From positions 1 through 43,329 of the IMG/VR virus record IMGVR_UViG_3300030376_006642: a DNA stretch of 43,329 bases; one strand, 5' to 3'. Positions within the stretch are counted from its first letter, which is position 1. Each line of letters starts with the position of its first letter. Source of the DNA: a virus. Taxonomy: Duplodnaviria; Caudoviricetes. Positions 82 through 43,327 of this stretch are shown in pieces. The translations under genes and the position numbers were made by a program. Below the pieces are notes generated by a model, which saw only the letters and a list, made by a program, of their open reading frames with translations, ran no database searches and was not told where the DNA came from.

Positions 82-110
82 GTGATAATTACTCCCGTTG
101 GCTATGTCAA
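82..110 (-). promoter_or_regulatory. Sigma70-like promoter driving the large ncRNA across the contig junction
   Basis: Minus strand TTGACA(110-105)-N17-TATCAC(87-82). Predicted start ~76-77 coincides with the first strand of the RNA's closing helix. The -10 is imperfect. Confidence 0.5.
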
Positions 111-237
111 AAAACTTTCTACTCCACTCTGCCCCACTCTTTGCCGTTCCGTCTGCCGTTGCAATATATTAATAATGTTGATAGCACATATACAAGCTTT
201 TTTTAAAATAAATGAAAATAAATTTTGCTAATAATAG

Positions 238-349
238 GCACGCACATGCACGCACACGCGTACAAGGCTCTCCTACGCACACACGCGCGCGTACGGGTAA
301 CGCGAACTCAACGAAAAGCTCGAACGCGAACGGAGCAAGAGGGGGGTGG
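238..349. other. GC-rich alternating purine-pyrimidine tract plus G-run upstream of terS; candidate pac/terminus region
   Basis: GCACGCACATGCACGCACACGCGTAC and TACGCACACACGCGCGCGTACG followed by GAGGGGGGTGG, in an otherwise AT-rich genome, between divergent early and late arms. Confidence 0.4.
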
Positions 350-413
350 CTTCTATATATAGTACTACCCACAGATTTTTCAGCTAATTTTCAAAACAAG
401 GTATGAGGGAGGC

Positions 414-455
414 GGGGGAGCTATTGGGCTATACGGATGTTGGGGCTGCTCCCCC
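414..455. other. GC-rich hairpin with 26-nt loop
   Basis: GGGGGAGC(414-421)/GCTCCCCC(448-455) perfect 8-bp stem; no clear U-tract on either side. Confidence 0.6.
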
Positions 456-477
456 TTGGGACAAAGCTTAATTTTAT

Positions 478-504
478 TAGGTATACATCTTTTTAGGTAT
501 ACTT
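478..504. repeat. Remote copy of the replication-origin iteron
   Basis: TAGGTATACATCTTTTTAGGTATACTT matches 35654-35680 TAGGTATCAATCTTTTTCGGTATACCT at 23/27 positions, same orientation. Confidence 0.7.
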
Positions 505-789
505 GGTTAACTGATACTTGGTGAGTTTTCGATGGTTTAGATAGAGACTACCCTACCCCTATAATAAGAATAAGGTTCGTCTCTAATCTGATACCTGGAG
601 CCGTTTCCTGATAAGATACAATCCTCAAGTATAGTTGGAATTGCGGATAGTTTTATTTATAATCTATACATTACAAGGCAACCTTTACTATCTTCGACAT
701 GGCTTCTCACTGTGCCTTAAACCCCTTTTAGTAGTGAGTTTTAAATCTAAGTGCTAAAAGTATCAAACCAACCCACTTAGATGTCAAGC
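503..789 (-). ncRNA. Large structured ncRNA candidate A (~290 nt, two pseudoknots)
   Basis: ORF-free. Helices 745-753/774-782, 706-711/733-738, 542-548/579-585, 550-561/565-576 (12 bp, 4 G.U only on minus), 613-618/689-694 and 619-628/635-643. Loop pairings 758-771 with 503-519 and 713-718 with 675-680. Confidence 0.7.
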
Positions 790-824
790 AGCTTAATTTA
801 TAACCTTTTCTTTTAAAGTTCCAA
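759..824 (-). promoter_or_regulatory. Tandem leftward promoters for ncRNA A
   Basis: TTGGAA(824-819)-N18-TAAATT(800-795) and TTGACA(787-782)-N17-GATACT(764-759). Confidence 0.5.
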
Positions 825-42445: not shown

Positions 42446-42478
42446 GTTATCCCCTTTGTTTTGTTTGTTTGCCGTTGC

Positions 42479-42508
42479 AATTTATAATACAATTTATATT
42501 ACTTGCAA
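42479..42508 (-). promoter_or_regulatory. Early promoter for the small-gene array
   Basis: TTGCAA(42508-03)-N18-TAAATT(42484-79). Confidence 0.55.
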
Positions 42509-42636
42509 GGTTTACTTTATCTTTTTAATATCTTTTTTTATTTCTCCGAATAGATACCATAGTATTAAAATGCATATTATGTGCATCATTCTTATTGGAA
42601 TTAAATAATAAAATGGTTGATAATTTAAAAATTCTA

Positions 42637-42864
42637 TCATACTTCAAACCCCCATTTTTTAAGCTGTGTTTTTATTGTCTGCGGTAGTTCATAAACTCCA
42701 TCATAATCAATTAGCATACCATCAGCAAACCAGAGTCCGCCCTCAGTATAATAATTATTATTATTAGAGTAAATTTCAAAATATCCGTATTGTTTAATTA
42801 AATCAATCTTAATATTAATATTGATTTGTTTATTAGGTTTTATTATTGTTGTTTCTAGATTCAT
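42637..42864 (-). CDS. Hypothetical early protein (start revised to MNLETT, 75 aa)
   Basis: AAGGA RBS before ATG 42864; EGGLWF...LIDYDGVYELP; the longer ORF-track start lies inside the cloverleaf. Confidence 0.75.
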   Translation of the reverse strand: MNLETTIIKPNKQININIKIDLIKQYGYFEIYSNNNNYYTEGGLWFADGMLIDYDGVYELPQTIKTQLKKWGFEV

Positions 42865-42887
42865 TTTATCATCCTTGCTTTGTTTTG

Positions 42888-42955
42888 TTCTTGGTATGGG
42901 ATTTGAACCCATTACAATATTTTGTATTTATCCGTATGCCCTATAAAACCAAGAA
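42888..42955 (-). ncRNA. tRNA-like perfect four-way-junction RNA (not a functional tRNA)
   Basis: UUCUUGGU / UUUAU-AGGGCAUACGG-AUAAA / UACAA-AAUA-UUGUA / AUGGG-UUCAAAU-CCCAU / ACCAAGAA; canonical T-loop, no 7-nt anticodon loop. Confidence 0.8.
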
Positions 42956-42960
42956 ATAAG

Positions 42961-43327
42961 AAATAGTCTCTGTTGTTCTTAACCCGTTCACCCCTAACAA
43001 ATCCGCCAAAGCGTCTTTGGTTTGTCTTAGTGTATTATTTTACACTAGCGGTATAACTCCGCAACGTGTCTAAGTGTCTGTAAAATTTCTTCCATCTTCG
43101 ACGCTGTAAGACGCCATAAGCAGTTAAAACTACCTTGCTACTAGAGAAACCGAATTATATTGAGAAAGCGTCTGTCTGTGTATGTATACCCTCGTAAAGA
43201 TATAACTTCGTTTTAAGTGTTGCTTGTCGGTCTTTGGACTTACTCAAGCATATATTAACTTACATTTAATATATTTTCTACTTATCCATAAAATCGCGTT
43301 GCCGTCTCTCAGTTCGGGACACTATCC
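42961..43327 (-). ncRNA. Large structured ncRNA candidate B (~367 nt)
   Basis: ORF-free; ends pair (GGAUAGU/ACUAUUU); about 9 further helices, G.U pairs favouring minus; long-range GCAACG/CGUUGC pseudoknot and GCGUC/GACGC loop-loop complement. Confidence 0.7.
43251..43327. repeat. Terminal direct repeat (right copy)
   Basis: Identical to 1-77. Confidence 0.95.

Follow-up and report, generated by a model that had tools for sequence, protein, structure and literature searches.

Covariation points to a family of large, structured and uncatalogued RNAs in phages, with a tRNA-like neighbour at a fixed distance

The structures of ROOL and GOLLD, two large phage-borne RNAs, have been solved, and to our knowledge neither their function nor the reason for their position near tRNA genes is known. 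Both form protein-free oligomeric particles in vitro according to the accessible parts of two reports (10.1101/2024.12.08.627333, PMC12990946), and the first of these, in the same parts, describes GOLLD as having conserved 3′ and variable 5′ parts (10.1101/2024.12.08.627333). RNAs of phage K were likened to ROOL and GOLLD by position only, in the available portion of a further report (PMC9241854). Irregular phage tRNAs have also been described, with anticodons retained in the examples given in the accessible text (PMC5389517). RNase P cleaves long RNAs at tRNA-like folds, and the sections available of one source name MALAT1, MEN-beta, t-elements, pre-tmRNA and phage-induced RNAs (PMC4919922). 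Here we describe a minus-strand element that, on comparison of related phages, represents an uncatalogued large structured phage RNA family with a fixed tRNA-like neighbour.

The window, that is, the whole stretch of DNA analysed (43,329 nucleotides), is a near-complete tailed-phage genome of 43.25 kb, in which the plus strand carries terminase, portal and capsid genes, while small genes for early functions and replication form a block on the minus strand. Its ends share a 77-nt overlap, positions 1-77 being duplicated at 43251-43327, so the element spans the assembly overlap, as the initial annotation had recognized; in the related contigs L001-L004 and L066 the region is one contiguous, unbroken piece. 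The two extra bases at the end of the window match the allele of L001, L002 and L066, and we read them as strain variation. Rfam gave no gathering-level match in the window, and a host lookup via the terminase yielded no related protein on GTDB contigs (0 of 78 candidates). Window positions 238-400, which separate the divergent gene blocks, contain GC-rich purine-pyrimidine repeats and a G run; these are kept in relatives and are likely genome-end or packaging signals.

The RNA region is non-coding. The longest stop-free run in the six frames is 40 codons, the homologues vary by 1-nt indels, and no conserved reading frame that could explain the region was found across them. Folded alone, the RNA of the window is no better than its shuffles (z −0.92); the evidence for the fold is comparative. 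Four clear homologues were present among 31 terminase relatives, and a metagenome scan returned 19 matches, eight of them real, by which one new type was gained. Five full-length RNA types, 61-90% identical, are known. We derived a fold model from an unbiased helix scan together with RNAalifold and scored it on the alignment A2, where 96.5% of the cells are paired and 54 of the 114 pairs show two-sided change; none of 500 shuffles scored as high, and slid controls reached ~42%. Because the model was derived from the very sequences on which it was scored, we added a second control in which columns could trade places only if their gap and substitution patterns were identical, followed by refolding. 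Under this pattern-preserving null, two-sided pairs numbered 9.6 ± 3.2 and at most 18, compared with 47 in the real alignment, and 0 of 200 shuffles came as high. The independent lineages number only about five, so that many two-sided cells represent a single inherited event. Judged by this covariation, the RNA element is real and related phages preserve its predicted fold through compensating mutations, which supports the earlier proposal of a large non-coding RNA with tertiary structure at the head of the early transcript.

The fold shown by covariation has two domains (Table 1). In the 5′ domain, two-sided change on A2 is seen in 2/4 pairs of h1, 3/7 of h2, 3/5 of P3, 8/8 of hairpin A, 3/8 of B and 7/8 of C. 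All sequences quoted in the initial annotation are found where it placed them, and the architecture that it drew from them is partly borne out. Its internal helix 43313-17/43150-54 is upheld by two-sided changes as 43317-14/43153-50, and its helix 43303-11/43161-70 is supported as a helix, 43308-01/43169-62, with a register that was off by two. Among its hairpins, those at 43274-50, 43249-22, 43135-18, 43047-28 and 43019-42998 carry two-sided changes in A2, and the one at 43062-48 is only 75% paired. The long-range contacts fared differently. The 7-bp helix proposed to close the ends forms 2/7 pairs in L003 and 1/7 in L004; the GCAACG/CGUUGC pseudoknot forms 3/6 pairs in both; and the GCGUC/GACGC kiss keeps two or three of its five pairs in four rows, with both of its "loops" sitting in stems. 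Taken jointly, these three have 72.5% of cells paired and two-sided change in 2 of 18 pairs, and between 34 and 190 of 500 shuffles scored as high, so that none of the three is supported. Instead of closing on the 5′ end, the 3′ end pairs internally through helix X (43091-85/42964-58), which has two-sided change in 4/7 pairs and no broken cell in A2, and which is retained with changed letters in the more divergent members L005 and L095. Helix X is one of four helices that the initial annotation did not contain, the others being 43284-80/43218-14, 43204-185 and 43074-63/42988-78.

Table 1. Positions of the RNA, its parts and its neighbours in the window.
Feature	Position	Strand	Evidence or remark
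Predicted sigma-70-type promoter (TTGTAT, 18 nt, TAATAT; start near 160)	166..195	-	recurrence in relatives
Invariant motif TTTTT(G/T)ACATAG, contains TTGACA	102..113	-	8/8 aligned sequences
5′ portion of the RNA, which crosses the contig junction	1..101	-	77-nt overlap; contiguous in L001-L004, L066
5′ domain: helices h1, h2, P3 and hairpins A, B, C	43150..43317	-	
Loop A (UGUAAG), first kissing half	43259..43264	-	covariation with loop E
Hairpin D with invariant U.G pair, and hairpin E	43100..43135	-	
Loop E (CUUACA), partner of loop A	43110-43105	-	
3′ domain: closing helix X, conserved internal loop, helix Y, hairpins F, G, H, AACA..ACU	42958..43091	-	
Anticodon-less tRNA-like element; predicted RNase P cut 42955/42954	42885..42954	-	z -2.67, covariation
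First ORF of the early genes (75 aa), with its start codon 23 nt past the tRNA-like element	42637..42864	-	differs between relatives

Comparison of the homologues shows complementarity between loop A and loop E. This kiss, which the initial annotation did not contain, is 100% paired, with two-sided change in 1/6 pairs within subfamily A, and when L005 and L095 (UUACAG/CUGUAA) are added the two-sided pairs rise to 3/6. The letters are UGUAAG/CUUACA in the group of the window and UAUAAG/CUUAUA in L003 and L004; no clear equivalent was found in L007. In the 3′ domain, helix Y encloses hairpins F, G and H, and AACA..ACU is invariant. From the invariant motif to ACU, five members measure 369-420 nt, and two others reach 507 and 585 nt; the 3′ domain is conserved, and the total length varies from ~370 to 590 nt via insertions. 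The 5′ UAG(U) could possibly pair with the invariant ACUA over three or four bases, and GGUUU/AAACC, GAAA/UUUC and GGU/ACC are candidate pairings among the invariant bases.

The 5′ boundary of the RNA appears to lie upstream of the place first assigned to it. A TTGACA promoter at 110-82 with a start at 77 had been proposed, which is doubtful, the −10 hexamer lacking A2 or T6 in nine of nine cases and the spacer sequence being conserved within subfamily A. A pair of hexamers, one of TTG type and one of the form TA...T, separated by 18 variable bases and found in the window at 195-166, recurs in 8 of 10 sequences with modest scores of 7-8 out of 12; a strict promoter scan of the window listed neither 195-166 nor 110-82. 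In L005 and L095 a variant of the invariant motif abuts the first helix. From the poor −10 hexamer, the conserved spacer, the hexamers at 195-166 and the abutting motif, we infer a start of the RNA between ~160 and 113 rather than at 77, and transcription of the motif, the motif itself probably lying inside the transcript as the 5′ boundary of the RNA. The 11-mer TTGCAACGGCA follows both predicted early promoters, at window positions 154-164 and 42470-42480 on the minus strand.

Directly after the RNA lies a degenerate tRNA-like element, which the initial annotation did not contain and which fits its remark on large RNAs beside tRNAs better than it had stated. The element is cloverleaf-like, with a 7-bp acceptor, a D-like arm with GG, a canonical T arm and a C-A-A end; in the window, a 4-nt stub loop takes the place of the 7-nt anticodon loop. 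Two-sided change is seen in 2/8 pairs of the acceptor and 3/5 of the T stem (A2). We read the geometry over 11 copies in 10 loci. The T stem has 5/5 pairs in nine copies and 4/5 in two, and the acceptor, which is the best result of a free upstream search, has at least 6/7 pairs in all 11. Beyond the T loop follow 5 + 7 paired bases, one discriminator and C74 in every copy; position 76 is A in 10/11 and position 75 is C in none. CCA and the anticodon loop are absent from 11/11 copies, and ARAGORN called no tRNA in the window or in 12 loci. RNase P is known to read the elbow and the 12-bp arm of its substrates. Position +1 of the element lies 10-11 nt downstream of the invariant ACU in all eight family members, and L095 has two copies in tandem after its RNA (1913-2085). 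The comparison thus shows a fixed coupling of the RNA to the tRNA-like element, and by analogy with known substrates, a cut by host RNase P at 42955/42954 would likely free the RNA as a stand-alone molecule.

To delimit the family, we used R1, a covariance model of the 3′ domain trained on six sequences, L007 included. Two members outside the training set, both with longer and different 5′ parts, were found with R1: L005 scored 43.5 bits (E 6e-8) in a search of 27 sources, and L095 scored 60.4 bits in one of 8 sources. It has no match on 66 flanks of more distant relatives, and in ten whole records the only real match is in G004 (L007), the best of the other nine having E 0.07. The family comprises ten records from about five lineages, with terminases at least 77% identical where seen. 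Since it is missing from most relatives (0/66 flanks; no real match in 9/10 records), the RNA is, by this sampling, accessory and confined to one narrow phage clade. A second model, R2, gave best E values of 0.16 for L095 and 1.4 for L022, whereas L028, L005 and L007 had no match. D/E-like motifs had been picked out by eye in L028 and L022; R1 reached only E 6 on L028, and both were left out of the family count. Pattern scans gave mostly chance matches (5/9, 5/8, 11/19 and 9/12). Among cultured phages there was no match to the RNA of the window, and only chance pieces of 27-48 nt for the L005 RNA; plasmids gave only such 27-48-nt chance pieces for the window RNA. The literature searched contains no description of this RNA. 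In six supplement files of an IMG/VR catalogue of structured RNAs (PMC10690425), four short motifs and two sample numbers were absent; its entries are of at most 151 nt and it has three further supplement files, so that the catalogue may list a fragment.

In relatives at 71-75% (L010, L028, L012 and L022), the corresponding position is taken by other long leaders. Non-coding leaders of 400-700 nt lie on the minus strand in L010 (2650-3260), L028 (1880-2400) and L100 (560-1260), and further ones in L012 (2900-3570) and L022 (3050-3600). A similar tRNA-like element terminates the leaders of L010 and L028, and repeated CUGAGA/CUGAAA motifs occur in several of the leaders. These leaders may be further RNA families sharing one slot. 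RNA1, a separate conserved non-coding element at window positions 400..800, occurs in at least 12 IMG/VR records, including phages without the RNA described here; its minus strand folds slightly better. We considered kinship between the two and rejected it, as they share only the short motifs GUCGAAG, AGAC.AACC and UAGGGG (z ~1). In the search for a host, an RNA1 pattern had six genome matches, of which none carries this RNA at E<0.2. A weak RNA1-like match (E 2e-5) lies in another phage, away from the terminase context (L196, 5151-5426), and in L016-L018, which have no copy of the present RNA, tandem AACGGTTACC-type repeats occupy the RNA1 position upstream of a small packaging-side gene.

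We favour, at about even confidence, the reading that host RNase P releases this early RNA, and that the RNA then works in trans, free of protein and perhaps self-assembling in the manner of ROOL and GOLLD. Transcription from the host-type promoter at 195-166 would yield a precursor containing the RNA, the tRNA-like element and the early ORFs. RNase P would then cut at 42955/42954, as the known substrate geometry suggests, giving an RNA of 373-456 nt with a 3-4-nt tail and leaving the tRNA-like piece to cap the early mRNA. The freed RNA would be stable, abundant early in infection and folded into a compact particle, which is the weakest step, and the kiss could form within or between molecules. 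The role of the particle would be to sequester a host factor, one that binds RNA or serves in defence, or to act as a decoy for it. Action in trans is consistent with a lack of ribosome-binding sites inside the RNA and with a next gene that varies. An RNA run (X1; oligo-dT, contigs, 12% of words) contains two 151-nt pieces at depth 2, only within 42582-42858 in the downstream ORF, and says nothing on the RNA. Pfam and PHROGs found no RNA-processing enzyme among the ORFs scanned. We considered as a dedicated partner the product of a 69-aa ORF (41893-41684, minus strand) that has no Pfam family and whose copies in RNA-bearing relatives are 64-86% identical. It accompanies the RNA in four relatives and is absent from nine RNA-less records. 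The ORF is common in other phages, and the RNA is present at only 3/80 of its loci and absent at 77/80, so this candidate was rejected; no dedicated protein partner was found.

The RNA could instead act in cis, the fold and the tRNA-like element staying on the early mRNA to stabilise it or to control read-through or translation of the first genes, which we consider unlikely while giving it appreciable weight. The RNA always heads the early operon, and in six of seven members the first start codon lies ~20-30 nt after the tRNA-like element. Apart from a weak match on hairpin H, there is no intrinsic terminator between the RNA and the genes, and the tRNA-like element never encodes CCA; all of this suits a leader. 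However, none of the conserved helices includes the ribosome-binding site, the downstream gene is different in every lineage, no conserved alternative pairing was found in the RNA, and relatives run the same operon without it. Two further readings have the position of the RNA in the genome-end region in their favour. A packaging RNA like phi29 pRNA, forming a ring on the prohead by loop-loop pairing, would suit the covarying loop-loop pair and the adjoining packaging genes and likely genome-end signals; we regard it as very improbable, because the large terminase and portal of this phage are ordinary ones and the RNA is missing from relatives that share its packaging genes. A DNA-level element, such as an origin or end-processing hairpins, would share this position and would agree with X1, where no transcript of the RNA was seen, although that oligo-dT run is uninformative either way. 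G-U types exceed A-C types 20 to 11 on the minus strand, and the canonical T loop, the loop-loop kiss and the long-range helices are features of RNA, which leaves the DNA reading scarcely credible.

A catalytic role deserves consideration as well. The RNA could be a derivative of a circularly permuted group I intron core working as a ribozyme, with D as P1 (U.G), E as P2 kissing a P9-like extension, X as P3, AACA..ACU as J6/7-P7 and the 5′ end as the S element. The order of the elements fits the group I layout, short motifs at both ends look like group I ones, the 5′ end of L003 (AUAUAGUC) resembles the Rfam group I consensus, and the U.G in hairpin D is invariant in 7/7 rows. Group I introns have an invariant G-C pair at the guanosine site in P7, whereas the corresponding position here is G in four of eight members and A in the other four. 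The P7-like pairing forms two or three of four pairs, with no covariation, and the P4-P5 domain is absent, a single helix Y enclosing F, G and H. RF00028 had no match on the element in five records, with the native order scored, and in the window reached only E 2.6 on the plus strand; the same model exceeded its cut-off in 2/14 controls. We therefore judge the intron derivative improbable. A new phage ribozyme class with a remodelled permuted group I-like core, released by RNase P and acting on RNA via the U.G of D and the AACA..ACU loop, seems to us just as improbable.

If the proposed cut by RNase P is real, the tRNA-like neighbour can serve as a processing signal in a phage, as mascRNA does for MALAT1. 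The layout, a non-decoding tRNA-like fold directly 3′ of a long ncRNA, is that of MALAT1/mascRNA, MEN-beta/menRNA and the plant mitochondrial t-elements, in which a long ncRNA is followed by a non-decoding tRNA-like structure cut by RNase P, as far as the accessible part of the source describes them (PMC4919922). The mascRNA-type systems are eukaryotic and shown by experiment, whereas here the carrier is a phage, the cleavage is predicted and there is no sequence relation.

The likeness to ROOL and GOLLD is one of kind, as first suggested. No other Rfam 15 family, RNase P RNA and tmRNA included, was found on the element (17 loci; also at E<=10 / E<=5). RF03087 (ROOL) has no match at E<=10 in the window region, in L005 or in five of five records, the positive control on a known carrier giving 130.4 bits, and local alignment to the control ROOL reveals no sequence similarity (z ~1). 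RF02032 (GOLLD) exceeded its cut-off in 0/5 records, a search with no over-cut-off positive control, and gave one match at E 2.9 elsewhere in the genome. By these models the RNA is neither ROOL nor GOLLD nor a group I intron, and it belongs to the same kind of ornate phage RNA. Within the available descriptions of ROOL, both are large multi-junction phage RNAs that show loop-loop pairing, contain variable inserts and are not known to have a protein partner, and ROOL measures 550-660 nt against 370-410 nt for the RNA in the window. ROOL adjoins tRNA genes, whereas this RNA adjoins a degenerate tRNA-like element that is not a tRNA. GOLLD, in the accessible accounts, is likewise phage-borne and next to tRNA-type genes, and its plan of a conserved 3′ and a variable 5′ part is matched here, a likeness of plan and not of sequence; the present RNA is half the size of GOLLD, with the tRNA-like element downstream at a fixed distance. 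The family is smaller (370-590 nt) and modular, with natural length variants, and its tRNA-like piece has given up decoding while keeping the features that RNase P reads. It offers a compact target that is open to direct test by cleavage assays, probing and cryo-EM.
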